A stretch of 64,000 nt of DNA from Syntrophomonadaceae bacterium (GTDB lineage Bacteria; Bacillota; Dethiobacteria; DTU022): contig SKOR01000044.1 of the NCBI GenBank assembly GCA_007119965.1, positions 8,270 through 72,269 of the forward strand, read 5' to 3'. The stretch's first letter is position 1; the number at the start of each line of letters is the position of its first letter. A model generated the notes under the pieces. The model was not told the origin of the DNA, searched no databases, and worked only from the letters and a program-made list of their open reading frames with translations. A program made the position numbers and the translations under genes. Shown here piece by piece: positions 11,350 through 61,008 of the stretch.

Positions 11350-11380
11350 TCGGACAGACTAGTTATGGAGGTAGTCTTCG

Positions 11381-34937: not shown

Positions 34938-35426
34938 TCAGAAGAACAAAAGATCAACAGCGTGGGCGATAAGCCCGGCCAGGATGCAAAAAAGAAACCC
35001 CAGGGCCATCCGCAATGCGGTGAATCTGATGCCTAAGAAGCTGCTTTCAAAAGGTATTTTTGAGAGGCCCAGGTAGGTCCATCCGACAAGCAGCGCCACG
35101 GTTGTCCCGAGGCCGGCGCCGGCATGGTAGATGGTAGCTATGATCGGGTAGGAAGCATAAGGCCCGAAAGCCATCAGCATTCCGCCAAAAGTGCCGAGCA
35201 TAATTCCAGTAAATCCGGCTTCCTGGGCCAGCCAGCGTCTGATAAATTCTTCCGGGATTATAACTTCCAGCAGGCCGGCCAGCAGCATGGCCAGGAGAAT
35301 AACCGGCAGGGCAAGAGTAAGCTGCCTGAAGCTGCTTTTTAAGCCGGCCCAGTGCCTGCCGCTCCGCAAATTGATCATAAAAAGGATTACGGCCAGGATT
35401 AAAAAAACTATAGTCGGTATTGTCAT
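34938..35426 (-). CDS. predicted permease, C-terminal half-subunit (DUF318/UPF0718-like two-component membrane permease)
   Basis: It has 4-5 TM helices. 'FGGMLMAFGPYASYPI' is homologous to 'AGGLFPGGPYIFYPF' in the upstream subunit. It overlaps the upstream gene by 4 nt. Confidence 0.55.
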   Translation of the reverse strand: MTIPTIVFLILAVILFMINLRSGRHWAGLKSSFRQLTLALPVILLAMLLAGLLEVIIPEEFIRRWLAQEAGFTGIMLGTFGGMLMAFGPYASYPIIATIYHAGAGLGTTVALLVGWTYLGLSKIPFESSFLGIRFTALRMALGFLFCILAGLIAHAVDLLFF

Positions 35427-35971
35427 TGCCGGCCGCCCTTCTCCCGGTTTTCGCCGCTAAATCCATCAGGTAGAAAGCGCCTGATGAGCAAACCCATGAC
35501 AAATGGGAAGGGAAGGGTAATGATATTTCTTAAGAGAGCCAGGCCAGGGGTGGTCAGGCTGATTTCCAGGGGCAGGCGGGTAAAGTCATAGTTCTGTTTG
35601 CCGACTACGAATGAAAAAATCAGGTAGAATGGAATACTTTTATCTTTAAACCCGGCCAGGAAAGGGTAGAAGATATATGGACCGCCCGGGAAGAGGCCGC
35701 CAGCGATGGAACTCATGGCGATACTCTTGCTGCCTGAATACTTATCCAACCACTGTTTGATCATCTCCGAAGAAATCAGTACCTGCAGCTGGCCGATCAC
35801 GATAAAGGCGACAATTATAAGCAGGAAGGCCCGCATTGCCGTCCGGCCGGCCTGGGCCAGGCCTTCAGCAACAAGCCCGGTTCCCCCAAGAGAATAGACT
35901 GCCACTAAGACAAGCAGCACGGCTGTTAACAGGATAAAGGCAGTTTTTTTCACTAAGCGCCCGGCCTCCAA
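35423..35971 (-). CDS. predicted permease, N-terminal half-subunit (DUF318/UPF0718-like)
   Basis: It is the translationally coupled partner of 34938..35426 and shares the internal-repeat motif. Confidence 0.55.
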   Translation of the reverse strand: MEAGRLVKKTAFILLTAVLLVLVAVYSLGGTGLVAEGLAQAGRTAMRAFLLIIVAFIVIGQLQVLISSEMIKQWLDKYSGSKSIAMSSIAGGLFPGGPYIFYPFLAGFKDKSIPFYLIFSFVVGKQNYDFTRLPLEISLTTPGLALLRNIITLPFPFVMGLLIRRFLPDGFSGENREKGGRQ

Positions 35972-37732: not shown

Positions 37733-39604
37733 ATGAGTTATAACGGAAAAATACTGAAGGTTAACCTTTCATCAGCGGAAGTAGAGATTGAAAAAAAGGA
37801 GGAAGATTTTTACCGGCGCTATTTCGGCGGTCACGGAATCGGCCTGTATTACCTTTTGAATGAATCCGGGGAAGAAACCGATCCCCTCGGGCCGGACAAC
37901 CCCCTGGTATTTGCTCCCGGCCTTTTAACCGGTCAAAGGATCCCGGCCGTACCCCGCTACATTGTCATGGCAAAATCACCGCTGACCAATGCGCTGGGTA
38001 AGTCGGAAGCCGGAGGTTGGTGGGGGCCCGAGTTAAAAAAAGCCGGCTTTGATGCAATTGTGATTACCGGGGCATCGCCGAAACCGGTTTACCTCTGGAT
38101 TAAGGACGGCCAGGTGGAAATCAGGGATGCGACCCACCTTTGGGGCCGTGAAACCGGGGAAACGCAGGATGGAATCCGGGAGGAATTGGATGACAAACGG
38201 ATCCAGGTAGCCCAGATTGGCCCTGCCGGGGAAAACCAGGTCCTCTACGCCAATATTGTCAACAACCTGGCTCACTTTAACGGGCGAAACGGCCTTGGCG
38301 CCGTGATGGGTGCCAAGAATCTCAAGGCCATAGCAGTGCGCGGAACGGCAGCCCCGGAAGCAGAAAACGCTGAGCAGTTAAAAGAAATATTTAGCTGGGC
38401 TGTCGATAATATCAGTGAGCACCCCCTCGGCTCCATGCTCCACAAACATGGCACCCCGGGAGGAATAAAGACGGTCAACGCCCAGGGCGGCCTGCCGACA
38501 AACAACTTCGCACTCGGAGTCTGTGATGATGCCGAAGAGCTTGCCTCAGAGCAGTACAGCCTGAAGCCAAAAGGTTGTTACGCCTGTCCGGTGGTGTGCA
38601 AGAGAGTGGTGGAAATTAATGAGGGCGAAATAAAAGTTGACAGGAGATATGGTGGCCCGGAATATGAGACCCTGGCGGCTATCGGTTCAAACTGCGGCAT
38701 TAGCGATCTGAAGATAGTAGCCAAGGCTAACGAATTGTGCAACCGTTATACCCTGGATACCATCTCGCTTGGCATGACCATTTCTTTCGCCATGAGGTGT
38801 TTCGAAGAAGGCATTATCGGTACTGAAGATACTGACGGCCTGGAGCTTAAGTTTGGCAATAAAGAAGTTATTCTGCCCCTGGTTGAGAAAATTGCCCGGC
38901 GGGAAGGTTTTGGTGACTTGCTTTCCCGGGGAAGCAGGCGGGCGGCCGAAGTATTCGGCCCTGAAAGCGAGAAGTTCCTGGTCGAAGTAAAGGGCCAGGA
39001 AGCGCCCATGCACGATCCGCGGATAAAAAGCGGTCTCGGACTGCAGTATGCCCTTTCGGTTAACGGTGCCGATCACTGGTATGCCCAGCATGATCCTTTC
39101 TTTGCAACTGCCGATGGTTTTGGCGTCATAGAAATGTCGGCTCTCGGCATCACGGAACCGGTTGAACCGCTTGATACCGGCGCCTCCAAGGTCAGGATGA
39201 TTTTTTATACCAGCCTCCTCAACAGCGCTTACGATGTGCTCGGGGTATGCATGTTTGGCTATGTCGCCCGCAGCCTGATTCCCCTGGACAAACTTGCCGC
39301 TGCTGTGAAAGCGGCAACAGGTTGGAACACAAGCTGGTGGGAAATGATCAAGGCCGGGGAAAGGGCCCTGGCCATGGCCCGGGAGTATAACCGCCGGCAG
39401 GGTTTGGCAGCCGCCGATGACAGGCTGCCCCGGTTATTCTACAGTTTTCTTGAAAAAGGGCCGTTTGGTGGAAAGATAACCCTGGAAAAAGAACAGTTTG
39501 AAGCGGCGGTGGCTTTATACTACGGTATGGCCGGTTGGACTGCTGAAGGCGGAGTCACTGAAAGCAAGCTTGAAGAGTTGGGACTTGCCTGGCTTAATCA
39601 GTAG
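37733..39604 (+). CDS. aor: tungsten-containing aldehyde:ferredoxin oxidoreductase (AOR family)
   Basis: The 623-aa product has the N-terminal AFOR_N domain ('GKILKVNLSS', 'GGHGIGLYYL'). 'CYACPVVCKR' is a Cys cluster for the 4Fe-4S centre. The C-terminal AFOR_C domain is present. Confidence 0.9.
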   Translation: MSYNGKILKVNLSSAEVEIEKKEEDFYRRYFGGHGIGLYYLLNESGEETDPLGPDNPLVFAPGLLTGQRIPAVPRYIVMAKSPLTNALGKSEAGGWWGPELKKAGFDAIVITGASPKPVYLWIKDGQVEIRDATHLWGRETGETQDGIREELDDKRIQVAQIGPAGENQVLYANIVNNLAHFNGRNGLGAVMGAKNLKAIAVRGTAAPEAENAEQLKEIFSWAVDNISEHPLGSMLHKHGTPGGIKTVNAQGGLPTNNFALGVCDDAEELASEQYSLKPKGCYACPVVCKRVVEINEGEIKVDRRYGGPEYETLAAIGSNCGISDLKIVAKANELCNRYTLDTISLGMTISFAMRCFEEGIIGTEDTDGLELKFGNKEVILPLVEKIARREGFGDLLSRGSRRAAEVFGPESEKFLVEVKGQEAPMHDPRIKSGLGLQYALSVNGADHWYAQHDPFFATADGFGVIEMSALGITEPVEPLDTGASKVRMIFYTSLLNSAYDVLGVCMFGYVARSLIPLDKLAAAVKAATGWNTSWWEMIKAGERALAMAREYNRRQGLAAADDRLPRLFYSFLEKGPFGGKITLEKEQFEAAVALYYGMAGWTAEGGVTESKLEELGLAWLNQ

Positions 39605-39817
39605 TAAAGCAAGAATAGCCCTACAGGGAATGCTTTCTTAGAGATATAGACGATTACATCATGCCGCAGCTTACAACTTAGAACTGCACCAAGATAAATG
39701 AAGCTTTAAACATCAAGATCAGGCAACCAGATTAGATCATCAAGAATGGTGTAATCGTCTATGTTAAATCTGAAAAGGGTAAAGAAATTTATTAATCAAG
39801 AAAGGAGCTGTGTGGTT

Positions 39818-40972
39818 ATGGTAAACCCGTTTACCCTACCCGGCGTCAACTATTACGGCCGTGGAGCCCTGGGCAGCCTGGGGCCGGAATTAAAAAACTA
39901 TAAAGCAAAAAAGGTGTTTCTTATCTCTGACCAGGGGGTCGCTTCGGCCGGACTTGTTGACAGGGTTGCCGGTGAGATTGAAGAAGCAGGAGCGGGGGTT
40001 GTCAGGTACCTCGATGTCACTCCTGAGCCAACCGTTGAAGAACTGGAGCAATGCCTGGAAAAGTTCAGGGATCATGACTGTAACCTGATTATCGGCCTGG
40101 GAGGCGGCAGCCCCCTGGATGTGGCCAAGGGCGTATCGGTTTTGGCAACTAACGGCGGCAGCATTCTCGATTATGTCGGCCTCAACCTGATTCCCGGGAA
40201 AGGTGTCCCCAAGTTCCTGATTCCGACAACAGCCGGCACGGGAGCGGAGGTAACTAAAAACGCCATCTTTACCGATACAAAAGAACATTTAAAAAAAGGT
40301 GTGGTCAGTATACATCTGCTGCCCGAAGTGGCGATTGTCGATTCCGGGTTAACCTACTCTGTGCCGCCCGGCGTAACTGCAGCCACGGGAATGGATGCCC
40401 TGACCCACGCTATTGAGTCATACACCTCGCCCAGGGCTAATATCCAGACTGATCTCTACGCCCTGAAAGCGATTGAATTAATTGGGGCCAGCCTCAGGCG
40501 GGCTGTCTCCTTTGGCAGGGATGAAAAATCTCGGGAAGATATGGCTCTCGGTTCAGTTTTTGCCGGCATCTCCCTGGCTAACGCAGGAGTTGGCGCCGTT
40601 CATGCCTGTGCCTACCCTATCGGCGGGCAGTTTGGCACCGGGCACGGGGAAACCAATGCCCTGTTGCTGCCTTACATCATGGAGTACAACATGATTGGCG
40701 ACCTCCAGAAGTTCGCTAATATTGCCCGCGCCATGGGTGAGGTTACCGGGAAGCTGTCCCTGCGGGAGCAGGCTGAGTTGGCCTGCAAATCTGTTTTTGA
40801 GCTGTCCCGTGATATCGGCATACCACAGAAACTGAGTGAATTCGGGATCAGGAAAGAGGATATTCCCGGGTTGGCTGAAGCAGCGGTTAAAGTAACCCGT
40901 TTGATGGATAACAATCCCAAAAAGCTGACCCTGGAAGAAGTGGAGGCCTGCCTCTTTAAAGCGCTGGATTAA
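39818..40972 (+). CDS. iron-containing (group III) alcohol dehydrogenase
   Basis: 'GGGSPLDVAKG' and the metal-binding His motifs ('HAIESYTS', 'HACAYPIGGQFGTGHG') are present. ATG at 39818 is 10 nt after AAAGGAG. Confidence 0.88.
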   Translation: MVNPFTLPGVNYYGRGALGSLGPELKNYKAKKVFLISDQGVASAGLVDRVAGEIEEAGAGVVRYLDVTPEPTVEELEQCLEKFRDHDCNLIIGLGGGSPLDVAKGVSVLATNGGSILDYVGLNLIPGKGVPKFLIPTTAGTGAEVTKNAIFTDTKEHLKKGVVSIHLLPEVAIVDSGLTYSVPPGVTAATGMDALTHAIESYTSPRANIQTDLYALKAIELIGASLRRAVSFGRDEKSREDMALGSVFAGISLANAGVGAVHACAYPIGGQFGTGHGETNALLLPYIMEYNMIGDLQKFANIARAMGEVTGKLSLREQAELACKSVFELSRDIGIPQKLSEFGIRKEDIPGLAEAAVKVTRLMDNNPKKLTLEEVEACLFKALD

Positions 40973-40995
40973 TGATGTGTGAGGTGTAAAACATT

Positions 40996-41760
40996 ATGGG
41001 AAAACTATCTGTTGACCTGAAAGGCAAAACTGCCATAGTGACCGGGGCCGGTAAAGGGATCGGCAAAGCAATAGCCCTTTCCCTGGCTGAGTCCGGGGCC
41101 GGGATTGTTGCTGTCAGCCGGACTATGAAAGACCTGGAAACGCTTAAGGCAGAAATAATGAAAGGAGGTGGAGAATGTTCCATTATAAGCTGTGATGTGC
41201 AAAATGTTAGCCAGATCGAGCAAATGGCAGAGCAGGCCGCTGACGAAGCGGGGCAAATTGATATCCTGGTTAACTCTGCCGGGTTAAATATCCAGGCCCA
41301 TACCCTTGATGTAACCGAGGAGCAGTGGGATACGATTATGAACACCAACCTGAAAGGCGCATTTTTTGCATCACAGGCTGTGGCAAAAAAGATGAAGCAG
41401 CATCAAGAAGGCCGGATTATAAACATTACTTCGCAGATGGCCCTGGTGGGTTTCTACAAGAGAGTGGCTTACTGCGCCAGTAAGGGCGGGTTGACCCAGG
41501 CCACCAAGGCCATGGCAGTAGAACTGGCAGAGTATAATATCAAGGTTAACTGTGTGGCTCCGACATTCCTGAAAACCCCCCTGACTGAACCGATGTTCGA
41601 AGATCAGGAGTTTTACAACGAGGTGATCAGCAGGATTCCCCTGGGTAAAATTGGCACCCCGGATGACGTTGTCGGCGCAGTATTATACCTGGCCTCAGAT
41701 TCGGCCGAACTGGTTACCGGAAGCACCGTGCTTGTTGATGGTGGCTGGGTAGCCTGGTAA
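40996..41760 (+). CDS. SDR-family NAD(P)-dependent oxidoreductase
   Basis: 'TGAGKGIGKAIA' is the Rossmann motif, 'NSAG' is present, and 'YCASKGG' is the catalytic YxxxK. Confidence 0.88.
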   Translation: MGKLSVDLKGKTAIVTGAGKGIGKAIALSLAESGAGIVAVSRTMKDLETLKAEIMKGGGECSIISCDVQNVSQIEQMAEQAADEAGQIDILVNSAGLNIQAHTLDVTEEQWDTIMNTNLKGAFFASQAVAKKMKQHQEGRIINITSQMALVGFYKRVAYCASKGGLTQATKAMAVELAEYNIKVNCVAPTFLKTPLTEPMFEDQEFYNEVISRIPLGKIGTPDDVVGAVLYLASDSAELVTGSTVLVDGGWVAW

Positions 41761-41804
41761 TTCTACCTTAGTAAAGTGATGTTAATAAGATTGGAGGATG
41801 TTAT

Positions 41805-43169
41805 ATGACCGTTCTGAATACTGTAGGAAACAAACTTTCCGATGTTTCGGAAAAGGTAATGCCAAGCCCCTTAATTTTTGCTCTTTTGCTTACATTCGTT
41901 TCATTTGTCCTCGGCATTACCCTGGCCGGGAACACACCGCTTCAAATGATCGACCACTGGTACGCCGGGTTTTGGGATCTGTTAGCTTTCGCTATGCAGA
42001 TGGTTCTCATCCTGGTTACCGGCCACGCCCTGACCCGGGCGCCCCAGGTCAGCAACTTGATCAAGAAACTGGCCGGCATCCCCAATAATAACCCCCAGGC
42101 TGCCGCATTAACTGCCCTGTTGGCCTGCCTGGTCGGTTACTTCCACTGGGGTTTCGGCTTGATCGTCGGCGCCCTTTTCGCAGTAGAGGTGGCGAAGCAG
42201 GCTCACCACAGGGGAATTAAACTGCACTATCCGCTTATTGCCGCTGCAGGTTATACCAGCCAGCTGGTCTGGCACGTTGGCCCCTCGAGCTCTGCTGCCC
42301 TTCTTTCGGCAACACCGGGCCATATATATGAAGATCTGATTGGCGTGGTTCCCCTTGCCGAATCAGTATTTTCTATTTACTCTATCCTGCTGGCAATCAT
42401 GCTTTGCCTTGTAGTTATTCCGGTAGCCTTTTACTTTATGGCACCGAAAACAGGTGAAGGCGCAAAGACAATCGCCGATATGTCACCGAAATTGCTGGAA
42501 GAGGACGAACATGGTATCGAAAATGATGTCATCGAAAAACCAACCTTCGGCGATCGACTGGATAACAGCAAGCTTATTGCCATCATAACTGCCATTATGG
42601 GAGCTGTGGCCATTGTACTCTATTTTTACGCCAGGGGTTTCACCCTCGACCTGAATATCTTTAACTTTATCTTTATCGTTCTCGGCTTTATACTGCACGG
42701 CACCCCTGAACGCTACGCTAAAGCAATCACCGAGGCTGTCAAGGGCGCTGCGGGCATCATTTTGCAGTTCCCCTTCTACGCCGGAATCATGGGTATGATT
42801 CAATACTCGGGGCTGGCCTTAATCGCTGCAAACTGGTTCCTCGGATTCGCTACTGCTGCTAACTTCCCGATTATTGCCTGGTTAACAGCAGGTGTGATGA
42901 ATATATTCGTACCTTCCGGTGGCGGGGAATGGGCTGTTATCGGCGGAATCATGAGTGAGGTATCATTGGCTCTTGGCGTACCGATCGGCAAAACTATTGT
43001 CGCCTACGGCTGTGGTGATATGTGGACGAATATGCTTCAGCCGTTTTGGGCTATCGCCCTGCTCGGTATTACCCAGCTTCGGGCCAGGGATATCATTGGT
43101 TACACCCTGACGATCATGTTAATTACCGGGCCATTTATTGCTCTTGGCCTCTATTTCTTCCCCTACTGA
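41805..43169 (+). CDS. atoE: short-chain fatty acid transporter (AtoE family)
   Basis: The 454-aa polytopic membrane protein has an N-terminus 'MTVLNTVGNKLSDVSEKVMPSPLIFALLLTF', typical of AtoE/SCFA transporters. Confidence 0.75.
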   Translation: MTVLNTVGNKLSDVSEKVMPSPLIFALLLTFVSFVLGITLAGNTPLQMIDHWYAGFWDLLAFAMQMVLILVTGHALTRAPQVSNLIKKLAGIPNNNPQAAALTALLACLVGYFHWGFGLIVGALFAVEVAKQAHHRGIKLHYPLIAAAGYTSQLVWHVGPSSSAALLSATPGHIYEDLIGVVPLAESVFSIYSILLAIMLCLVVIPVAFYFMAPKTGEGAKTIADMSPKLLEEDEHGIENDVIEKPTFGDRLDNSKLIAIITAIMGAVAIVLYFYARGFTLDLNIFNFIFIVLGFILHGTPERYAKAITEAVKGAAGIILQFPFYAGIMGMIQYSGLALIAANWFLGFATAANFPIIAWLTAGVMNIFVPSGGGEWAVIGGIMSEVSLALGVPIGKTIVAYGCGDMWTNMLQPFWAIALLGITQLRARDIIGYTLTIMLITGPFIALGLYFFPY

Positions 43170-43204
43170 TCGCTCTGAGGCGATTCCAGTGAATCTATCA
43201 TCAG

Positions 43205-43243
43205 GCGCTGCTACCGGTGTTACACCGGTGGCAGCGCCTTTCC
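43205..43243 (+). terminator. rho-independent terminator after atoE
   Basis: A 16-bp stem GGCGCTGCTACCGGTG / CACCGGTGGCAGCGCC with one mismatch is followed by TTTCCC. Confidence 0.6.
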
Positions 43244-43392
43244 CGCAGGCCTGCGCATCAACCCGGGCAAAACGGGTTGTCCTGGATGATTGCGGTATGG
43301 AGCAGTTCATGAAGGAACTGTTTTTCGCGTTATGGGGAACCATGAAATGGCAGTGTGGGATTTATCCACGTGAGTATAAAAATAGCAGGCAT

Positions 43393-43420
43393 TGACACGG
43401 TATTTTGGGTAAAGTATACT
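43393..43420 (+). promoter_or_regulatory. sigma-A-like promoter TTGACA-N16-TATACT upstream of nifS
   Basis: TTGACA is at 43393-43398 and TATACT at 43415-43420. Confidence 0.5.
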
Positions 43421-43560
43421 TAAACTATAGCAATTGTATATAATTTTCATTGATGCCGAAGAGGGGCTAGAAATTTTAAGATGCATAGCCCAGGCTGAAA
43501 TTGTTTCAGGTTAGGATAAACGGACCAGAATTATTGAGGGTTTATTGGGAGGTTATATTG

Positions 43561-44715
43561 ATGAGAGAGATTTACCTGGACAATGCTGCTACAACAGCGG
43601 TTCTTCCGGAGGTTGCTGATGCAATGCGCCCGTATTTAACTGAAATTTATGGGAACCCTTCCAGCCTGTATTCTATCGGGCAGAAGGGGAAGCGCGCGTT
43701 GGAAGGGTCGCGCAATGAGGTTGCCTCCGCCATAGAAGCCGAACCTGAAGGAATTATTTTTACAAGTGGCGGCACAGAAAGCGATAACCTGGCCATAAAA
43801 GGTTTTGCTTATGCAAACAGCGACCGGGGCCGGCACCTGGTTACCTCACCCATTGAGCACCATGCTGTCCTAAATGTTTTTCATGAACTCGAAAAACAGG
43901 GGTTTGAGGTGTCCTACCTTCCCGTTGACCGGTATGGAATGGTTGATCCTGAAGCAGTAAAAAAAATAATCCGTCCCGACACCATCCTGATCAGCATCAT
44001 GCTGGCTAACAATGAAATCGGCACGATCGAGCCCCTGAAAGAAATCACCGCCCTGGCTCATGAGCGGGGGATAGCAGTTCATACCGATGCAGTCCAGGCT
44101 GTAGGCAAAATCCCGGTCAGCGTTAAAGAACTGGGAGTAGATATGCTCTCTCTGACTGCTCATAAAATTTACGGCCCCAAGGGTACCGGGGCTCTTTACA
44201 AGCGCGAAGGCATCAAGCTTGCCCCACTTTTTGAAGGTGGACACCAGGAAAAGATTTTACGTCCCGGCACTGAAAATATTCCCGGGGTGGTCGGCCTGGC
44301 CACCGCCCTGCGCCTCGCTACCGGTAACCTTGATACTGAAGCTGCCAAAATATCGGCTCTGCGCGACAGGCTTGAAAGCGGTATTCTATCACGCATTGAT
44401 AATGTAACTTTAAACGGCCATTCTCAACAAAGGGTGTCGAATATAAGCAGCCTGAATTTTGCTTTCCTGGAAGGGGAAGCCCTGCTCCTGGCCCTCGATA
44501 CAAGAGGAATTGCCGTATCGACAGCTTCAGCCTGCAGCGCTGATTCTGATGAACCTTCTCATGTCCTTACCGCAATTGGCCTTGACCCTGTCACAGCCAG
44601 GGGGACACTTCGCTTTTCACTTGGCATAAATAACACTTCAGAAGAGATTGACTATGTTATCGATGCTGTAGCCGATGCGGCAGAGCAGCTTCGCCAACTC
44701 TCACCGATGCGTTAA
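43561..44715 (+). CDS. nifS: cysteine desulfurase (class V aminotransferase, NifS/IscS type)
   Basis: The N-terminus 'MREIYLDNAATT' is preceded by GGGAGG. 'SLTAHKIYGPKGTGALY' carries the PLP lysine. 'SASACSA' carries the active-site Cys. Confidence 0.9.
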   Translation: MREIYLDNAATTAVLPEVADAMRPYLTEIYGNPSSLYSIGQKGKRALEGSRNEVASAIEAEPEGIIFTSGGTESDNLAIKGFAYANSDRGRHLVTSPIEHHAVLNVFHELEKQGFEVSYLPVDRYGMVDPEAVKKIIRPDTILISIMLANNEIGTIEPLKEITALAHERGIAVHTDAVQAVGKIPVSVKELGVDMLSLTAHKIYGPKGTGALYKREGIKLAPLFEGGHQEKILRPGTENIPGVVGLATALRLATGNLDTEAAKISALRDRLESGILSRIDNVTLNGHSQQRVSNISSLNFAFLEGEALLLALDTRGIAVSTASACSADSDEPSHVLTAIGLDPVTARGTLRFSLGINNTSEEIDYVIDAVADAAEQLRQLSPMR

Positions 44716-44803
44716 CCGGTTGGCCCTTGCTTAAGAAAAAGAGAAGGCCGGTAATATCACGGCAGCCCCGGATGATATAATTTATTACTGGAGAAGATGA
44801 ACT

Positions 44804-45298
44804 ATGGTCAAAATTCAGCCTTATGAAGAGAGTGATTGGAAGGCCATCTGGCGGATTATCGAGCCCGTGTTCCGGCCTGGTGAGAGCTATTCCTTTTCGC
44901 CGGAGATAAGTGAAGAAGAGGCCCACAGGGTTTGGGTGGAAATGCCTGAGACAACATATGTTGCCCTGGATCATAACAGCTTTATCCTTGGCACATACTA
45001 GATCAAACCAAACCAACCGGCCCTGGGCGCCCATGTCTGCAACTGCGGTTATATCGTTGCAGAAGCTTCCCGTGGCAAAGGGATTGCTTCAGAAATTTGT
45101 GAGCACTCGCAGTCTGAAGCTGTATCAAAAGGATTCCGGGCAATGCAGTACAACCTTGTTGCAGCAGCCAACCAGGGTGCCGTCCGCCTCTGGCAGCGGC
45201 ACGGATTTTACATAATAGGATCACTCCCCGCAGCATTCCGTCATTCAAAACTTGGCTTTGCAGATGCCTTTGTGATGTATAAACTGCTGGTGGACTAA
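44804..45298 (+). CDS. GNAT-family N-acetyltransferase interrupted by an in-frame TAG (44999-45001): pseudogene, stop-codon readthrough, or pyrrolysine site
   Basis: The first 65 codons (MVKIQPYEE...FILGTY), the TAG, and the next 99 codons are in one frame. The downstream part contains the GNAT acetyl-CoA motif 'RGKGIAS' and the beta4-alpha3 core ('IKPNQPALGAHVCNCGYIVAEASRGKGIASEI'). The total is 164 codons, a normal GNAT length. Confidence 0.5.
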
Positions 45299-45655
45299 GT
45301 CGAATTTCAGCCAACTCCAGCCCTGTGAATAATCAGACGCTATCCGAATGAAGCCCTCCCGGTTAATTGAGCGAGAGGGCTTCATGTTGGGAATATCCCA
45401 GGCTGGTTGTAAGAGCAGGGGACGGGGCCCTCTTTGATTTGGGTTAACCCTGTCGGCGTGCCCGGTATTCCCATGCTTATGTTGACAGCCTGCTGACGGT
45501 TCAGTTTTTTTCGGTCGAATTTCCGGCAAATAAACGGGCTTAAGCATTTAGGGTTAAATAAAGCGATGCAGTTAGATCAGTCAGGCCCTTCTTCATAGTG
45601 TTTCCCTCAGACACAGGTTGAAAGCCGGGGCAGTTTGCTTTATCTTTAACCTCTC

Positions 45656-47323
45656 TCAGGCTTGTTTTTCGCTCTGCATAGTCTGATAGATGTAGTAGCC
45701 GCCGTTTAGGTTGCGTACTTTATTAAAGCCATTATGGATAAGAATTCGTGAAGCCAGGTATGAGCGCAGGCCGGCACTGCAGTAAGTAATTGTTTCCTTT
45801 TTTGGATCAAGTACTTTCAACTGGCTGCGCAGCTGGCCCAGGGGAATATTAATGCTGCCCGGAATTATTCCCTGCTTGAGTTCTTCCGTTTCACGGACAT
45901 CAACGATCTGGAGGCGGCTCATGTCTGTTTCGGTTAATTCCTCTGTTTCAATAGTTTCATAACCAGACTTTAACATGTTGCCTGCGACAAAACCGGCCAT
46001 GTTGACCGGATCCTTTGCCGATGAGTATGGCGGGGCGTAGGCCAGTTCCAGTTCCTGCAGATCATTAACACTGCCCCCGAGACGCAGGGCGGTTGCGAGC
46101 ACATCGATCCGCTTTTCTACGCCGCTGAATCCCAGGGCCTGGGCGCCCAATACTTTTCCTTCGGGGTTAAACAGCAGTTTCAGGGAAAGGGGAGACGCCT
46201 CCGGGTAATAGCCGGCATGATCATTAGGGTGAATAATTATGCTGTGGTATTGAATTTCGGCCTCTTTCAGAATTCGCTCATTGGCGCCTGTTGTGGCCAC
46301 GGTCATATCAAATATTTTCAGTACAGATGTGCCCTGGGTGCCATTGTAGTGTTCAGAATTTCCGACAATGTTATTGGCGACTATCCGCCCCTGCTTGTTG
46401 GCAGGGCCGGCCAGGGGAATTACCGCCGGCTTGCCGGTAACCAGGTGTTTTACTTCAACTGCATCGCCTAAGGCATAAATTGAAGGGTCATTAGTCTGCA
46501 TTCGATCATTGACCTTAATACCCCGCTCAACTTCCAATCCCGCTTCCCTGGCCAATTTTGCCTCCGGCTTGACGCCAATCGAAAGGATTACCAGGTCGGT
46601 TTCCAGCAGTTCACCGCTGTTCAATTCAACATTCAGGCCGCCATTTTCAACTTGATGAAATTGCTTAACCCCATTGCCCAGCCGGAGATTTACATTATGG
46701 GTGCGCAGGTAATGTTGAACCAACAGGGCCATATCGGGGTCAATTGGCGGCAGGACCTGGTGGGCAAGCTCAACAATTGTAACATCCAGGCCTCGTTGGT
46801 GCAGACTTTCGGCCATTTCCAGGCCAATATAGCCGGCTCCCACTACTACAGCTTTTTGCGGGTCTTCCCCAGCAAGGTGACTGAAGATCCGATCAGTGTC
46901 GTTAACGCTTCTCAGGCTGAAAATGCCCTCGCTGTCGATTCCCGGCAGCGGCGGCCGCAGCGGTTCGGCTCCCGGTGACAGGACTAAGTAATCATAACTT
47001 TCGCGATATTTCCGGCCACTGCCCAGTTCAATAATTTCTATTTCTTTATTCTCCCGGTCAATTCCGACGGCTTCATTTAAGGTCCGGACATCAACATTCA
47101 TCCATGCTTTAAATTTTTGGGGCGTCATAACGAAAAGGTCGTCCCTTGCTTCGATTGTTCCCCCAATGTAGTAAGGAAGACCGCAGTTGGCATAGGAAAC
47201 ATACTCGCCACGCTCCAATAGTATTATCTCAGCCTCTTCGCTCATACGACGCAAACGTGCAGCGGTAGAAGCCCCGCCGGCTACCCCGCCAACAATAACA
47301 ACTTTCAGTGACATAGAAAGCAA
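45656..47323 (-). CDS. CoA-disulfide reductase with C-terminal rhodanese domain (CoADR-RHD)
   Basis: It has an FAD/NAD pyridine-nucleotide-disulfide oxidoreductase fold with 'SYANCGLPYY' (the CoADR redox Cys) and a C-terminal rhodanese with 'CSAGLRS'. Confidence 0.85.
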   Translation of the reverse strand: MLSMSLKVVIVGGVAGGASTAARLRRMSEEAEIILLERGEYVSYANCGLPYYIGGTIEARDDLFVMTPQKFKAWMNVDVRTLNEAVGIDRENKEIEIIELGSGRKYRESYDYLVLSPGAEPLRPPLPGIDSEGIFSLRSVNDTDRIFSHLAGEDPQKAVVVGAGYIGLEMAESLHQRGLDVTIVELAHQVLPPIDPDMALLVQHYLRTHNVNLRLGNGVKQFHQVENGGLNVELNSGELLETDLVILSIGVKPEAKLAREAGLEVERGIKVNDRMQTNDPSIYALGDAVEVKHLVTGKPAVIPLAGPANKQGRIVANNIVGNSEHYNGTQGTSVLKIFDMTVATTGANERILKEAEIQYHSIIIHPNDHAGYYPEASPLSLKLLFNPEGKVLGAQALGFSGVEKRIDVLATALRLGGSVNDLQELELAYAPPYSSAKDPVNMAGFVAGNMLKSGYETIETEELTETDMSRLQIVDVRETEELKQGIIPGSINIPLGQLRSQLKVLDPKKETITYCSAGLRSYLASRILIHNGFNKVRNLNGGYYIYQTMQSEKQA

Positions 47324-47588
47324 CCCCTTTTTAAACTGATTACCTCAAATTATAACATAATATTAAGATTATGCAATGTGTCGCCGTGGGGAGAATACCA
47401 GTAAAAGGGGGCGGGAGTCACGCACTAATAATATTTGTAACTGCTCACGCCTCCAAAGGAACCCGGACCTTCGGTCAGCAGCAGGCGAAGCACTTTCTTA
47501 CCTCTCCGTTGCAGGTAAGGGTATCGGCAGCGATAATGCTTTTCCCCTGACTGCTGTTGCAGAAATAGAGACTGGCTGCTATACCAGG

Positions 47589-48122
47589 TTATACTGCAGT
47601 AACCGGCATGGCCTGCATCGAGTATTTTACACTGTCGTTCTCAACCGATCTGATGCCTATCTCTTTGAAGCCTTGCCTGGCATGGAAATCAAGAGATCGC
47701 TTGTTGGGCGGTTCAATCATGATCTCGCAGGTGATTACCGGGATGTTTTCTTTGCGGGCATAGTCAACAATATCCCTGTATAAGAGCGTGCCGATTTTGA
47801 GCCCCTGGTAAGGCCTGTCGACAACTATCCTGTCGATGTATAAAAACCTCTCGTAACGTTCTGAAAACCAGCGGTAGTTATCATTTACGTAAGGGACATG
47901 ATCTTTCATGGCGAGGATAAAAGCAGCGACATGCCCATTGACTTCAGCCACCCTGTGGTAATCTGACAGAGAATCGAGGTGGCGGGCTCTGTCTATGTCC
48001 ATAGCGCTGGTGTACTGAATTTCACAGGCATTCAGATAAATAATCCTGTTGTAGTCCGAATCTGCAGCATCCCGGATAAGAGTCTTGGGCAAATCCGGGC
48101 CCTGGTTGCTTAAGTTTTTCAA
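47589..48122 (-). CDS. GNAT-family N-acetyltransferase
   Basis: The 177-aa product has 'IVVDRPYQGLKIGTLLY' and the overall GNAT pattern. Confidence 0.7.
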   Translation of the reverse strand: MKNLSNQGPDLPKTLIRDAADSDYNRIIYLNACEIQYTSAMDIDRARHLDSLSDYHRVAEVNGHVAAFILAMKDHVPYVNDNYRWFSERYERFLYIDRIVVDRPYQGLKIGTLLYRDIVDYARKENIPVITCEIMIEPPNKRSLDFHARQGFKEIGIRSVENDSVKYSMQAMPVTAV

Positions 48123-48399
48123 AAGAATAGTCCCTCCTTTTTATAGCCATTATATATTTATATGTGACAAAGGTAAAATGCTTTAACAGCTGTTCTGCTG
48201 CACAGCAGTTGACTGAGCGCCAGTCTGAATGGCGTCTTGAAAAGCGATTACACCTATTGACACGATACCCCCCGTGGGTTTATAATTCATTTCAAGCGCA
48301 TATCCATAACTCTATTAGTCAGGCTTTTTGAGCCTGCGGCGCTCGCAATTAAGCGCAGTTTCCCAAACTATTGAAGAACCTGATTGAGGAGTCCATTAA

Positions 48400-48735
48400 A
48401 TGACTGAAAAAGGCTTGGCCAATGGGAATGAAGAAAACGATGAAACCTGTCACCACGCAGGTCACGGCAGTTACCAGGGAAATAAAAAAAAGATCCTTGA
48501 CGGCTTGAGCCGGACAGAAGGCCAGGTCAGGGGTATAAAGCGCATGGTTGAGGAAGAAAGGTATTGTGTCGATGTGCTGAACCAGATCGCTGCATCCAGG
48601 ATGGCGCTGGCCCGCCTGGCCATGTTAATTCTGGAAGATCACACCAAGGGTTGTGTCAGTACGGCTATCCTCGAAAAAGAGAGTGGAGAAAGTACCATAG
48701 AAGAACTGATGGAAGTGATTAAGAGGCTTATGTAA
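48400..48735 (+). CDS. csoR: CsoR/RcnR-family copper-sensing transcriptional repressor with His-rich N-terminal extension
   Basis: 'LSRTEGQVRGIKRMVEEERYCVDVLNQIAA' and '...HTKGC' carry the Cys-His-Cys Cu(I) ligand pattern. The N-terminus is 'CHHAGHGS'. Confidence 0.85.
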   Translation: MTEKGLANGNEENDETCHHAGHGSYQGNKKKILDGLSRTEGQVRGIKRMVEEERYCVDVLNQIAASRMALARLAMLILEDHTKGCVSTAILEKESGESTIEELMEVIKRLM

Positions 48736-48800
48736 GCTTTACAGTTTGAAGCGGCCGGATGCCGGCTTGTAATTTATTTGGCAGCAATTTAAGTTTTACA

Positions 48801-48850
48801 TAGAATTAGAAATGCTGAGGCAGTTTTATGCCTCAGCATTTCTAATTCTA
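48801..48850. terminator. perfect 21-bp inverted repeat hairpin (bidirectional terminator candidate) between csoR and the convergent cop operon
   Basis: TAGAATTAGAAATGCTGAGGC - AGTTTTAT - GCCTCAGCATTTCTAATTCTA. Confidence 0.6.
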
Positions 48851-48951
48851 TTATCCCTTCAGCACTACAAACAGATTTCAACAAATTACTCATTGCATAA
48901 TATTCCTGCGAAAAAGCTGCAGCCTGAATCTATACTGAATGTTTCAGCAGA

Positions 48952-49176
48952 CTAGTGGCAGCTCGGCTTTTGTCCTTTAAATTCTTCAGCATTGGATTCA
49001 GCCATACGGTAGAGAAAACGCTGCCACCAGTTTTTGCCAATATATTTTTCAGGATCGCCTTGAAATTGTTCCCGGCAACCCTGACAGCAAAATTCATATG
49101 TTATTCCATTATAAGAGTAAGTTGCATTAACCTTTTCTTCTGATAAAGTATTCTTGCATACAGGATCATAATACAT
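48952..49176 (-). CDS. YHS/TRASH-domain metal-binding protein
   Basis: 'DPVCKNTL...YSYNGITYEFCCQGCREQF' matches the YHS pattern. It is the last gene of the copA-copZ operon. Confidence 0.75.
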   Translation of the reverse strand: MYYDPVCKNTLSEEKVNATYSYNGITYEFCCQGCREQFQGDPEKYIGKNWWQRFLYRMAESNAEEFKGQKPSCH

Positions 49177-49232
49177 GGTTAGCTCTCCTTACTGACAAGC
49201 GATTCACTGCGGCCCGCTATGCGGGATCATCC

Positions 49233-49472
49233 CTAATGTTCAGACCTGGTTCCCTCATAACCGGCATCATTGACTGCCTGGATCAGGTTCTCTACATTAG
49301 TAATAGCAGTGTCGTATTCAAGGTAAGCCCGTTCATTGTTTAGATCAACCTGGACAGAAGTAACTCCCCGGGCCTCCTGCAGCGCCTTTTCGACGTGCTG
49401 GACACAGTGGTTACAACTCATTCCGGATATATTGATCACCGTCTTTTCCAGGTTACTTGATTGACCATTCAT
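49233..49472 (-). CDS. copZ: copper chaperone CopZ (HMA domain)
   Basis: 'GMSCNHCVQHVEKAL' is the MxCxxC motif. The product is 79 aa. Confidence 0.88.
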   Translation of the reverse strand: MNGQSSNLEKTVINISGMSCNHCVQHVEKALQEARGVTSVQVDLNNERAYLEYDTAITNVENLIQAVNDAGYEGTRSEH

Positions 49473-49501
49473 TATTATCTGCCTCCTCTGTCAAGCCATG
49501 A

Positions 49502-49522
49502 ATATACCCCTATTGGGTATAT
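49502..49522. promoter_or_regulatory. CsoR-type operator ATATACCC-N5-GGGTATAT upstream of copZ
   Basis: 8-bp GC-cored inverted arms with a 5-bp spacer (CTATT). It is the same architecture as the site upstream of copA. Confidence 0.6.
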
Positions 49523-49671
49523 TATAACAGTAATTTTGCAACTAGGCAACCCGGGCTGGTTAATTCATAACCGGTTGCGGTCATCAGCGGCAGCAGTCCG
49601 GAAAAGTTCAGGGCGAACCTGCAGGCTGCACGTCCCGTGGTCAGCGCGCAGATGCGGGGCCCTGATTTGTT

Positions 49672-52218
49672 TTATAAATTGTTACCGGTTTGCGCCGGTA
49701 TTTGATTCTCAGTCTCCGGTGCCTGGTGCCTGCGATCCAGGTAATCAGGTTTAATTCTGACTTTTTTAAGTAGCGTAGAGTTTAACACTACACTGATGGA
49801 ACTTGTAGCCATGGCGGCTGCCCCGATCATCGGGTGCAGTAACCCGAAGAAAGCTGCCGGGATAGCCAGGCCGTTATAAAACCAGGCCCAGAAGTAGTTT
49901 TGTTTGATCTTGCCAAAAGTGGCATTTGACAGCTTGATGGCCGCGATTACTGCGCTTAATTCGCCCCGGACCAGGGTAATATCTGCCGCTTCAATGGCAA
50001 TATCGGTGCCGGTTCCGATCGCAATCCCAACATTGGCCTGTTTTAAAGCGGGCGCATCGTTAATGCCGTCCCCAACCATAGCCACTGTCCCGTATTCCTC
50101 CTGCAGCTTCTTGATTTCGTCTACTTTTCCGTCGGGAAGCACTTCGGCCAGGACTCTGCTCATGCCAACCTTCCGGGCAATGGCGCTTGCTGTTCTGCTG
50201 TTGTCCCCGGTTATCATTGCTGTTCTGAATCCCATTTTTTCCAGCTCGGCAATCGCCTGTTCGGAATCTTCCTTTAGGGTATCGGCAACGGCAACAATCC
50301 CGGCCATTTCACCGCCTATGGCGATTAACATCGCAGTTTTTGCTTCGTCTTCGAGTTTTTCCATTTCATTTACATACTGTTGATATACTATTCCCTTTGC
50401 CTCCATCAGTTTGCGGCTTCCGATCAGGACCTGCTTATCGTTCACCGCTCCTTCAACCCCTTTGCCGGTTACAGATGTAAAATCTGCAACCTTTTGCAGG
50501 GTAAGGCCTTCAGCTTTGGCCTTTTCCACTATGGCTGCTCCGAGGGGATGTTCCGAAGCAGCTTCCAGGCTGCCGCCGTAAAACAGTAAATCGGATCCAG
50601 TGTAGCCGTTTACAGCAGAAATGTCGGTAACCTCCGGTTTTCCCTTGGTGATAGTCCCGGTTTTATCGAAGGCGATGATTTTAACATTCTTAATCGTCTG
50701 GATCGCCTCTCCTTTTCTGATTAAAATTCCATTTTCCGCGCCCAGACCACCACCGACCATGATAGCCGTTGGAGTAGCCAGGCCCAGTGCACAGGGGCAG
50801 GAGATGACCAGTACTGCGATTGTCGCCAGCAGGGCCAGGGAAAACTGCGGTAAATCAACGTTGCTCCACGGGAAGTTAAAGAACTCTACAATCGGAATAA
50901 AAAATCCCGGGAAAAGCGTCCACAACACGAAGGCGAGAACTGCGACCAGAATAACTGCCGGCACGAAAAAACCGGTGACCTTGTCCGCAAATTCCTGGAT
51001 CGGCACCTTGGAACCCTGGCTTTCCTCGACCATCTTGATCACCCGCGAGAGGAAGGTATCTTTGCCGATCTTGGTTGCCTTTACCTGAAGCATGCCTTGC
51101 TTGTTGATTGTAGAGCCGATTACTTCATCCCCGCTTGACCTCTCCACAGGCAGCGATTCGCCGGTAGCCATCGACTCGTCTATGCTGCTCCTGCCCTCGA
51201 CGACTACACCGTCGGTGGGAACCTTTTCACCGGGGCGGACAATCATAACCTGGCCAACTTCCAGCTCTTCGATCGGGACTTCGACTTCCTCCCCGTCGAT
51301 AATCACTCTTGCTTTCTTTGCTTCCATTTCCAGAAGCTTTTTAATCGCCTGGGAAGCTTTACCCTTGGCTTTCGCTTCAAGGAACCTTCCAACCAGGTGC
51401 AGGGTCATAATCGAGGCGGCCATCTCAATGAAAGATGTGATCGGAAACCATATAACAGCCAGGTTGAGCAGGTATGGCAGCAGTGAGCCCATCGATACCA
51501 GGGTATCCATATTCGGGCTGAGGGCTTTCACCGATTTAAAACTGCCCACGTGTGTTTCCCAGCCGGCAAAGAATATTACCGGAAAAGCAAGGACAAAAAT
51601 AATTGGCAAATAGTAAGGAATTTCTACCAGGAACATATGAACCATCATCAGGATCATAATCGGAGCGGCAAAGGATATGGCAAACCACATCCGCCGGGCA
51701 GCATGGGCCATTTTTGCCATTTCGTGATCCTGGATTTCCTTTCCCTTGCTGTCGACATCCGAACTCTCTATTACTTCGTAGCCGCTATCCCTGATAGTTT
51801 TCTTTAGTTTTACCTGGCTGGTTTCAGAGGGGTTATATTTAACAGTGACTTTTTCCGAGGCAAAATTAACTGTGGCTTCAGCAACCCCCGGCTTGCTGTT
51901 CAGGCTTTTTTCAATTCTCTGTGCACAGCTGCTGCAGGTCATGCCGGAAACAGTAAAAGTTATTGTCTTAAGTTCACTGCCGGTTAATTTTCCTTCGTAA
52001 CCGCTCTTTTTTACCACATCGAGCAGGGTGGACTCGTCAATCAAGGCAGAATCAAATTCAACATAGGCTTTCTCCATTGGAAAGTTTACCTGTGCTGACA
52101 GAACTCCCTCAGTCTTTTGCAGCGCCTTTTCAACTCTCTGGGAACAAGCGGTGCAGGTCATGCCGGATAAAGCAATAACCGTTTTTTCCGGTTCTGTTTT
52201 AGTTTCCGGGTTACTCAT
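49672..52218 (-). CDS. copA: copper-translocating P1B-1 ATPase CopA with two N-terminal HMA domains
   Basis: Two MxCxxC motifs ('[15 protein letters not shown]', '[15 protein letters not shown]') are present, plus the TM motif '[11 protein letters not shown]' (CPC), 'DKTGTIT' and '[10 protein letters not shown]'. Confidence 0.93.
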
Positions 52219-55230: not shown

Positions 55231-56619
55231 TTAAAGGCCTGCCCTTTCCTTGAAACGTTCTACAGAGTTAATCTTGATATCGAGGGCCTTGGCAATATTG
55301 AACTTTGCTTCAATACCCTTGGGGAAGTTGTTCAGGTCAAACGAACGCCCCATACCCTTATCAGCCCTAATATCATACATCTTATCTGAATCGCTTAGAT
55401 CGATGGGGTCGACCCCCAGTTTTTCCGCTACATACTTTTTGGCTTCGTCGATCTTCATGCTCTTAGCGAGCTGTATCCGCAGAACCAGATCTCCGGCTGT
55501 GCGAATGCCACTCATGCAGGAAGAAACTCCGTGAGCCACTTCGAGGCTAAAAGTATCGCCTACCCCTATCTATAACCCGTCGGCCTTGCCGATTTCAATC
55601 AGCGCTTTATCGGCCCTGGTTACAGCGTCGATCGGCGGAATCTCGCTGGTCGGGATACCGCCGACACCCATGCCGACGTTAACGTGCACCGGGATATCTG
55701 CTGCCTCGGTGCAGGCTTTCACAAAGGTTACAGCGCGGGCAATGCCCCAGGGAAAGGACATCTTGGTGTTTGTATTGATTACGGCACCGAAAATGTTGGC
55801 CCCCGCTTTTTCTGCCAGCTTGACCTGTTTGTGCGGGTAAAGTCCGGCTACCCTTGTCCCGTCGTATTCAATTTTACCGTGCATCCCTAACACAAATTCA
55901 CCGGCGGCACCCATTTCAACACCAAAATCAGGGTATTTTTCCTTAATTTTTTCGGTAGCCAGCAGTCCGGCGAGAAAATCTGCATCACCGGAAGCTCCGC
56001 AGGTGTCGAGGTTAATGCCGTCAGCACCGGCCGCATACATTTCACCGGCCACGAAAACTATATCGCGGACAGCATGTTCAACCGCTTCTTCCTGGGCGGC
56101 TCGTGATTCATCAATCTTTCCCAACGGCAGTAGCTCTGACCAGTTTTCTACCGGACCGTCAGGCTTTGTGTAGAGGCCAAGATTCGGCATAGAACCGTAA
56201 AGAACCGGCATAACTGCGTTAAGCTGGGCAAGCTCCATGACCGGGGTTTCATTGTGAATAATCTGCTTTACAGCCTTGTAGCTGTAGTCCATGTTGCCGA
56301 TATCGACAGAGTCGGCACCTAAAATCTTTTCACTGACCAATACAGCCATCGAACGTTCCATGGCAATATTGGCATGATAGGTCATCTTACAGCTGCCCGA
56401 GTCGGAAGTGCTCACCACTTCCCGGCCTCGCTTGACACCTACAATGTTTCCCGGCATCGTAATGATCTCGAAGAGGTAATCCATCTCTTCTTCGGTCAAC
56501 TCAGGAATTTTACCGCGTTTAGCGGCATCTTCCACGCCTTTTTTTATTTCATCCTTAATTTCTTCCGCGGACATATAGACGCCGGAACCGTCGCCCATCC
56601 GTGTAAAAAATTCACCCAA
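55231..56619 (-). CDS. mtbB: dimethylamine:corrinoid methyltransferase MtbB with in-frame UAG (pyrrolysine codon) at 55570..55572
   Basis: The TTG start at 56619 lies behind AAGGAGGAG. The 349 codons up to UAG contain 'MPNLGLYTKPDGP', 'GADGINLDT', 'VLGMHGKIEYDG', 'VAGLYPH' and 'AGANIFGAV'. These match what I recall of MtbB ('MPNMGLYY', 'LAGLWPH', 'AGANVFGPV'). After the UAG the same frame continues for 112 sense codons ('IGVGDTFSLEVAHGVSSCMSGIRTAGDLVLRIQLAKSMKIDEAKKYVAEKLGVD...'), with no SD and only a GTG. The total of 462 codons matches the roughly 467-aa MtbB, which has pyrrolysine near 356. Confidence 0.8.
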
Positions 56620-60426: not shown

Positions 60427-61008
60427 TTACCGAAAGCATGGCGGGTTTGCCAGGCTTTTAATCATCAGGTAGTCGGTCTCCTGCTCTTTAACTTTTTCAA
60501 AGCCAAGCCGCTTATAAAGGTTGACTGCCCTGTTCTTTTTATTGACACTCAGCGAGAGTTTTTTAAAACCGATGGCATTTAACTCTGTAAACAAGTGCTC
60601 CATCAGTGTTGTGCCAATACCTCTGCCCCGGTAATCGGGCCGAACCGCAAAAACCAGCTCTGGCACAGCCGGGTCTATAAAACCGTAGCCCCCTGATGCA
60701 GCATCTTTAAACTGCCTGGTCCAGGCAGCACCTATCTTGTTACCATCAAGCTCTGCTATAACCCCGCAATCAGTTTCCTTCATCCAGTCATCTGTATACT
60801 TAAGAAGCTCCGGTATATCAATAATCGAGAAAGGAGGTTTATCAGCACCCGGTGGCAGGTGTATTGATTCATAAAGCATTTCTCTTAAAAATTGTTGATC
60901 TTCCGGCCCTGCTTTCCTTATGGTTGCCATATTAAGATCACCAGTCCCTTTGTTGTTAATTACGCCTAGTTTATCATATGTTTCCGGTATAATCCGCACT
61001 CTGTCCAC
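60427..61008 (-). CDS. GNAT-family N-acetyltransferase
   Basis: 'VRPDYRGRGIGTTLMEH' is the R/Q-x-x-G-x-G/A motif. Confidence 0.78.
   Translation of the reverse strand: MDRVRIIPETYDKLGVINNKGTGDLNMATIRKAGPEDQQFLREMLYESIHLPPGADKPPFSIIDIPELLKYTDDWMKETDCGVIAELDGNKIGAAWTRQFKDAASGGYGFIDPAVPELVFAVRPDYRGRGIGTTLMEHLFTELNAIGFKKLSLSVNKKNRAVNLYKRLGFEKVKEQETDYLMIKSLANPPCFR

Follow-up and report, generated by a model that had tools for sequence, protein, structure and literature searches.

A probable young nonsense pseudogene: an in-frame amber codon in an Mpr1-like acetyltransferase gene of a Syntrophomonadaceae bacterium with a UAG-containing mtbB

A gene for an Mpr1-like GNAT acetyltransferase in an uncultured soda-lake Syntrophomonadaceae bacterium is interrupted at codon 66 by an amber codon (TAG) that is real, fixed in the species, confined to it, and derived from a tyrosine codon. 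The gene is best explained, with a probability of roughly 70%, as a young Tyr66-to-amber pseudogene of a dispensable accessory acetyltransferase. The stretch of DNA analysed here (64,000 nt of contig SKOR01000044.1, hereafter the window) also carries mtbB, a dimethylamine methyltransferase gene with a UAG at its pyrrolysine (Pyl) position, as a first-pass annotation of the DNA had stated. That annotation left three options for the GNAT codon: a nonsense pseudogene, a second protein made by Pyl insertion or a sequencing error. The first is favoured by the sense codon in relatives, the restriction of the stop to one species, the substitutions A25P and P33L, and the raised polymorphism of the gene; a selected Pyl protein is not supported, and an error is refuted.

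The frame opens with an ATG and closes with a TAA (45296-45298), and the single TAG within its 164 codons and the RGKGIAS block behind the stop are where the first-pass annotation had placed them (Table 1). The read-through sequence around codon 66 is ILGTY-O-IKPNQPALGAHVCNCGYIVAEASR (O, Pyl at the TAG), its downstream part beginning IKPNQPALGAH. No uninterrupted ORF covers the whole GNAT domain, which is broken by the TAG: the Pfam model Acetyltransf_1 (PF00583) spans the stop, matching residues 13-135 of the read-through product (E = 3.1e-12; 47.2 bits against a curated cut-off of 20.7; profile positions 2-116 of 116). Searched alone, the 98-residue piece 3' of the TAG still matches this model (E = 7.6e-9), and the 65-residue piece 5' of it has no Pfam match. 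Open stretches of 65-66 and 98 codons on either side of the TAG, both homologous to the family, are far more than chance would give. The N-terminal piece contains neither the acetyl-CoA loop nor the catalytic residues; all catalytic elements lie 3' of the TAG, and therefore the 65-residue product cannot be an acetyltransferase.

Table 1. Features of the interrupted GNAT gene and of mtbB, in coordinates of the window
Feature	Position	Strand	Remarks
GGAG ribosome-binding site, putative	44790-44793	+	10 nt 5' of the ATG; seen by eye, role presumed
Whole Mpr1-like GNAT frame	44804-45298	+	164 codons including the TAG, then TAA terminator
N-terminal 65 codons	44804-44998	+	Sole product under standard decoding
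Codon 25	44876-44878	+	CCT (Pro) in the window strain, GCT (Ala) in 7 other assemblies; Ala is the consensus (111/120)
In-frame amber TAG, codon 66	44999-45001	+	Position ancestrally Tyr (TAC/TAT)
C-terminal 98 codons and TAA	45002-45298	+	Holds N80, RGKGIAS and N123
N80 codon	45041-45043	+	3' of the TAG
Acetyl-CoA loop RGKGIAS, residues 90-96	45071-45091	+	3' of the TAG
N123 codon	45170-45172	+	Equivalent to catalytic Asn178 of Mpr1
mtbB, dimethylamine methyltransferase	55231-56619	-	Pfam Dimeth_Pyl; TAA terminator
PYLIS_2 match in mtbB	55473-55572	-	Rfam, 43.3 bits, above the gathering score
mtbB Pyl-position TAG	55570-55572	-	112 further open codons before the TAA

None of the ORFs that overlap the locus in antisense or in another frame matches a Pfam model, and those at 44657-45034 (-), 45003-45314 (-), 44910-45215 (+) and 45245-45547 (-) were dismissed as shadows of the gene. 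A scan of the locus for promoters and terminators returned nothing beyond shuffle expectation; it did not score the imperfect hairpin at 45350-45383 as a terminator.

Judged from its members, the Mpr1-like GNAT family is large and tightly conserved: 4,615 homologues were found at E <= 1e-5, the best of them full length (164 aa) and 74% identical. The closest solved structures are an uncharacterised GNAT of Kribbella flavida (4H89, E = 3e-34) and yeast Mpr1 (3W6X, E = 8e-13), and the motif LGT[FY]YIKPN...H.CN.G is common to the window GNAT, 4H89 and Mpr1 (PDB 3W6S, 3W6X). The substrates of Mpr1 are cyclic secondary amines, which it acetylates with Asn178 as a catalytic residue (PMC4964394). The window GNAT is offset from Mpr1 by 55 residues, so that its N123, invariant among the homologues (120/120), corresponds to that asparagine. 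N80, present in 119/120, corresponds to Asn135 of Mpr1, which we take to have a role in substrate binding. Similarly, the acetyl-CoA loop R/Q-x-x-G-x-G/A is present as R90-G-K-G93-I-A95, with R90 conserved in 117 and G93 in all of the 120 homologues. Of the 87 columns in which the family is at least 90% conserved, the window GNAT retains 83, with N80, N123 and the loop among them. The 98 codons 3' of the TAG are approximately 76% identical to the best homologue and keep every key residue, and a young nonsense mutation would look the same. Mpr1 is an L-azetidine-2-carboxylate and cis-4-hydroxyproline N-acetyltransferase. The window GNAT, a bacterial form of 164 aa, lacks the N-terminal extension of the yeast enzyme and is interrupted at the tyrosine equivalent to Tyr121 of Mpr1.

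The fold was assessed on the closest intact homologue (P0001, 74% identical) and not on the window protein itself. The AlphaFold model of this homologue (pLDDT 75.5) has the GNAT alpha/beta fold, and its top Foldseek match is 4H89 (E = 4e-14, TM 0.71), followed by PAT/YncA-type GNATs. In this model residue 66 closes the beta-strand formed by residues 61-66, which agrees with the earlier placement of the TAG in a strand where homologues carry an aromatic residue. Tyr (89) or Phe (28) indeed occupies this column in 117 of the 120 homologous proteins, and another residue in 3. At the DNA level, codon 66 is TAC in 48, TAT in 12, TTC in 17 and another sense codon in 3 of the 80 genomic homologues, and a stop in none (0/80); all five Bacillota/Syntrophomonadaceae MAG homologues read LGTYYIKPNQP. 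Since relatives have a Tyr codon at this position (TAC or TAT in 60/80), the TAG is one substitution away from its ancestral codon, as the first-pass annotation had proposed.

A TAG conserved in orthologues would have been the mark of recoding, and neither the 80 genomes nor at least 120 metagenome contigs contained one, and a dedicated scan for stop codons found none either. In that scan, 241 million metagenome records were searched with the pattern GGN ACN TWY TAR ATH AAR CCN AAY CA, which detects TAG or TAA at codon 66; it gave 0 matches, and a control pattern with TAY at this codon gave at least 120. Additionally, no intact allele more than 74% identical was present among 5.8 billion proteins, and in a scan of genome contigs that did not include the source species the best match was 77% identical. 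Among approximately 200 family members read at the DNA level, 5 (~2.5%) have in-frame stops elsewhere (5 TGA and 2 TAA codons); therefore, broken copies of this gene are not rare.

Some of these stops are worth recording individually. In metagenome contigs Ga0194012_1000735 (L117) and Ga0316189_10027456 (L155), TGA replaces conserved cysteines of the same GNAT family (Cys79 and Cys99, respectively), and L117 and L192 also have TGA at Trp44. The TGA codons in L117, L155 and L192 could be pseudogene lesions, sequencing errors, selenocysteine codons or signs of TGA-recoded lineages. A homologue from a Chloroflexia MAG (L041, CAVOHX010000016.1) is otherwise intact and has an in-frame TGA at codon 8, where either the true start lies further downstream or the allele is a nonsense allele, probably.

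Seven further assemblies of the species were reached through NifS homologues (99-100% identical) and through the 51-aa fragment downstream of the stop. Three are NCBI/ENA records (GCA_007128785.1, GCA_007136415.1 and ERZ27301262) and four are Logan assemblies (SRR7083934, SRR16248207, SRR16248213 and SRR16248218). All seven are syntenic with the window at 99.7-99.9% identity, and SNPs set them apart from it. Several samples are probably from the same lake system; the assemblies are to be read as independent assemblies of one population and not as independent lineages. The TAG is present at codon 66 in all eight assemblies (8/8). Public gene calls split the gene into 65 aa and 51 aa, and the identical 51-aa downstream call is found on 13 contigs. 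For annotation purposes, both calls are fragments of one broken GNAT.

Within the species, 27 sites vary among the assemblies across 39561-50299. Four of them fall in the 495 nt of the GNAT gene, where 1.1 are expected (Poisson P = 0.027), approximately three times the local density. Two are synonymous and two non-synonymous: A25P, found only in the window strain at a position conserved in 111/120 homologues, and P33L, found only in SRR16248213 at a position conserved in 116/120. Both are radical substitutions at highly conserved positions, and neither derived residue occurs among the 120 homologues. This polymorphism fits relaxed constraint, although the signal is weak (P ~0.03), and the N:S ratio of 2:2 is not distinguishable from the 5:9 of the neighbouring genes. 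Among the eight assemblies there is no non-synonymous polymorphism 3' of the TAG and no second disabling lesion (further stop or frameshift). Therefore the pseudogene, if it is one, is young, and with 83/87 conserved columns kept, decay is not demonstrated and the gene is only compatible with a young event. The first-pass annotation had taken a sense codon in orthologues together with other decay as the signature of a simple pseudogene; the former was found (Tyr/Phe), and of the latter there are A25P and P33L, at conserved positions in single strains, and no second lesion. In comparison, mtbB has 1 synonymous polymorphism in 1,389 nt. The upstream NifS-like cysteine desulfurase gene (43561-44715, +) varies among strains at 4 non-synonymous sites and 1 synonymous site, an N:S ratio that is unusually high for a housekeeping-type gene compared with its neighbours.

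The gene is patchily distributed. In the soda-lake sediment Syntrophomonadaceae bacterium MAG SKZS01, whose NifS is 85% identical, NifS is adjoined by ThiF and the GNAT is absent from the locus. The window GNAT is nearest to homologues of Desulfobacterota (73%), those of Bacillota being 59-67% identical, and was probably acquired horizontally. Its absence from the 85% relative and its affinity to Desulfobacterota argue for an accessory gene and would fit a dispensable one. Two more intact GNAT genes lie in the 64-kb window, at 47589-48122 (-) and 60427-61008 (-), and with several small acetyltransferases the organism would more readily tolerate losing one. A second apparently split gene in the window, for an ArsP_1-type permease (34938-35971, -), consists of two adjacent overlapping ORFs of 162 and 182 aa. 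The same two-ORF arrangement (161 and 175 aa) is present in the 85% relative (L085-L088), and thus it is conserved and not a lesion.

TAG is a normal terminator in the window, where it ends 9 of 44 genes, including those for a full-length Gln/Glu-tRNA synthetase, aldehyde:ferredoxin oxidoreductase (AFOR) and Ham1, all with complete Pfam models. The frames beyond these terminal TAGs stay open for 0-45 codons, much as they do beyond TAA and TGA. Long homology-backed extensions past a TAG occur in the window only in mtbB (112 codons) and in the GNAT gene (98 codons); other sites with at least 60 open codons on both sides of a TAG are antisense or out of frame relative to annotated genes and were discarded.

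The TAG of mtbB is kept in all 3 other assemblies that cover the gene. No pyl genes and no tRNA-Pyl lie within the 64-kb window, and Pyl decoding is therefore deduced from the conserved UAG-containing mtbB: the organism very probably has tRNA-Pyl and decodes this UAG as Pyl. The mtbB gene is isolated: its neighbours encode a xanthine/uracil-type permease and an M20 peptidase, and neither a corrinoid protein gene nor any pyl gene is near it. A 2014 review describes mtbB as almost exclusive to Methanosarcinales (PMC3941956), which makes a copy in a Syntrophomonadaceae-like soda-lake bacterium noteworthy.

In the passages of PMC8211752 and PMC3941956 that cite Prat et al. 2012, Pyl decoding in bacteria is described as condition-dependent, and UAG decoding in Acetohalobium arabaticum as dependent on the carbon source. 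As in A. arabaticum, TAG stays a frequent terminator in the window bacterium, and Pyl decoding is therefore presumably handled by regulation; by such regulated decoding the UAG of the GNAT gene could be suppressed incidentally. No sign of regulation or suppression was seen in the window bacterium, and its pyl genes are presumed.

Four other readings of the GNAT codon were weighed against a nonsense pseudogene. The suggestion that the true codon is TAT or TAC and was misread or misassembled has in its favour that one substitution separates TAG from either; however, seven further assemblies, which derive from different runs and MAGs and have SNPs nearby, contain the TAG, and 13 contigs carry the identical 51-aa downstream call. 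These refute an error at the consensus level and leave it a practically nil probability. Genome-wide reassignment of TAG, or a GNAT made as two polypeptides by reinitiation after the stop, would account for the open frame 3' of the TAG and nothing more, and both were rejected as very remote. Reassignment conflicts with the full-length, Pfam-complete housekeeping genes that end in TAG. As for reinitiation, the first in-frame ATG, GTG or TTG after the stop is the ATG at 45143 (codon 114), beyond the acetyl-CoA loop, and there is no ribosome-binding site 3' of the TAG. A stop that is leaky without Pyl, with near-cognate readthrough (e.g., Tyr or Gln at UAG) sustaining a useful enzyme, is also improbable. 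Interspecies conservation of in-frame stops, with dN/dS < 1, is reported to be widespread in bacteria (PMC7918605), and the GNAT gene is free of other lesions. Yet this stop is common to no other species, purifying selection leaves no signal within the species, where the trend is opposite, and UAG, which closes housekeeping genes in the window, is normally an efficient terminator.

The most consequential alternative is selected Pyl recoding, in which the UAG would be a conditional switch and GNAT(Pyl66) would be made only when methylamines induce a pyl cassette. It is unlikely. The window also holds mtbB, whose UAG is at the Pyl position and has a PYLIS match, the GNAT TAG is fixed in 8/8 assemblies, and the frame is clean with catalytic residues conserved behind it. 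Pyl insertion needs no cis element (PMC8211752), the condition-dependent decoding described in the cited passages of PMC8211752 and PMC3941956 would suit such a switch, and archaeal precedents exist in RdmS, Thg1 and transposases (PMC12626013, PMC8211752). True Pyl codons, both in bacterial mtbB, mttB and mtmB and in these genes of Methanosarcina, likewise are in-frame UAGs followed by conserved coding sequence, in organisms with a Pyl-dependent methyltransferase. The usual criterion for recoding is that at least two different sequences have the same recoded codon (PMC1976440), whereas the GNAT TAG, seen only among sequences of one species (>=99.7% identical), fails it. Moreover, the UAG of mtbB is at the family-defining Pyl position of a nearly invariant gene, whereas that of GNAT replaces a tyrosine, in one species, in a gene with raised polymorphism. 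The site is a beta-strand Tyr/Phe, not a Lys-like or catalytic residue, and the strain-specific radical substitutions point to relaxed constraint. No PYLIS-like fold was detected 3' of the GNAT TAG (MFE -28.3 against a shuffle mean of -29.5, z = +0.34), nor any Rfam PYLIS match there even at E <= 10; an Atu_Ti4 match at the locus (E = 9.5) is attributed to chance. The lack of pyl genes and tRNA-Pyl in the window also counts against this reading. As a selected product, the second Pyl protein envisaged by the first-pass annotation is thus not borne out, the TAG being found in no orthologue from the genomes and metagenome contigs searched, and physical readthrough without a cis element may still occur. 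If this reading were true, GNAT(Pyl66) would be the first Pyl protein from bacteria that is not a methylamine methyltransferase, and its gene a case of expression gated by genetic-code expansion.

For a young nonsense pseudogene, the proposed sequence of events would be short. A single TAC or TAT to TAG substitution at Tyr66 became fixed in the uncultured soda-lake species, and under standard decoding translation ends after 65 residues. A fragment without the acetyl-CoA loop and without both conserved asparagines would leave the GNAT inactivated. When the pyl genes are on, Pyl-tRNA would compete with the release factor at any UAG, and since no cis signal is required for Pyl insertion, full-length Tyr66Pyl protein may arise in some amount. 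Given that the organism very likely has tRNA-Pyl, the GNAT stop may be leaky; ambiguous reading of UAG outside methyltransferase genes is known from Methanosarcina (PMC12626013). Such protein would be an incidental by-product, and nothing indicates selection for it. Loss of GNAT function, relaxed selection and incidental suppression are what we infer from the fixed stop and its context.

In nonsense pseudogenes of bacterial accessory genes, as here, a single stop arises from a sense codon that relatives keep, and the premature stop removes essential parts of the protein. The GNAT gene resembles them also in lacking its catalytic part, in being patchy and apparently dispensable, and in belonging to a family with other broken members. 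It differs from them in being very young, with no second lesion, and in residing in a genome that very probably has an amber-decoding tRNA-Pyl, so that inactivation may be incomplete under some growth conditions. As it stands, it is an ordinary young pseudogene, of practical value chiefly for the correction of gene calls, and its further interest lies in two points. The contrast between mtbB and the GNAT gene in the same genome shows how a selected Pyl codon can be told from a chance amber mutation. Additionally, an amber mutation that has become fixed in nature offers a ready reporter, in situ, of UAG leakiness in Pyl-decoding bacteria, and as such bears on the view that bacteria handle Pyl by regulation and not by codon avoidance.

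Elsewhere in the window, an 852-aa ORF (14319-16877, +) and a 287-aa ORF (7540-8403, -) have no Pfam match at E <= 1e-5. Signalling proteins of the HD-GYP/HD_5 type are encoded in a cluster at 16970-19717 (-), 10225-13198 (+) and 20373-21584 (+). One of these proteins has an N-terminal MEDS ('methanogen/methylotroph DcmR sensory') domain and GAF domains, and the cluster could be relevant to the sensing of methylated substrates.
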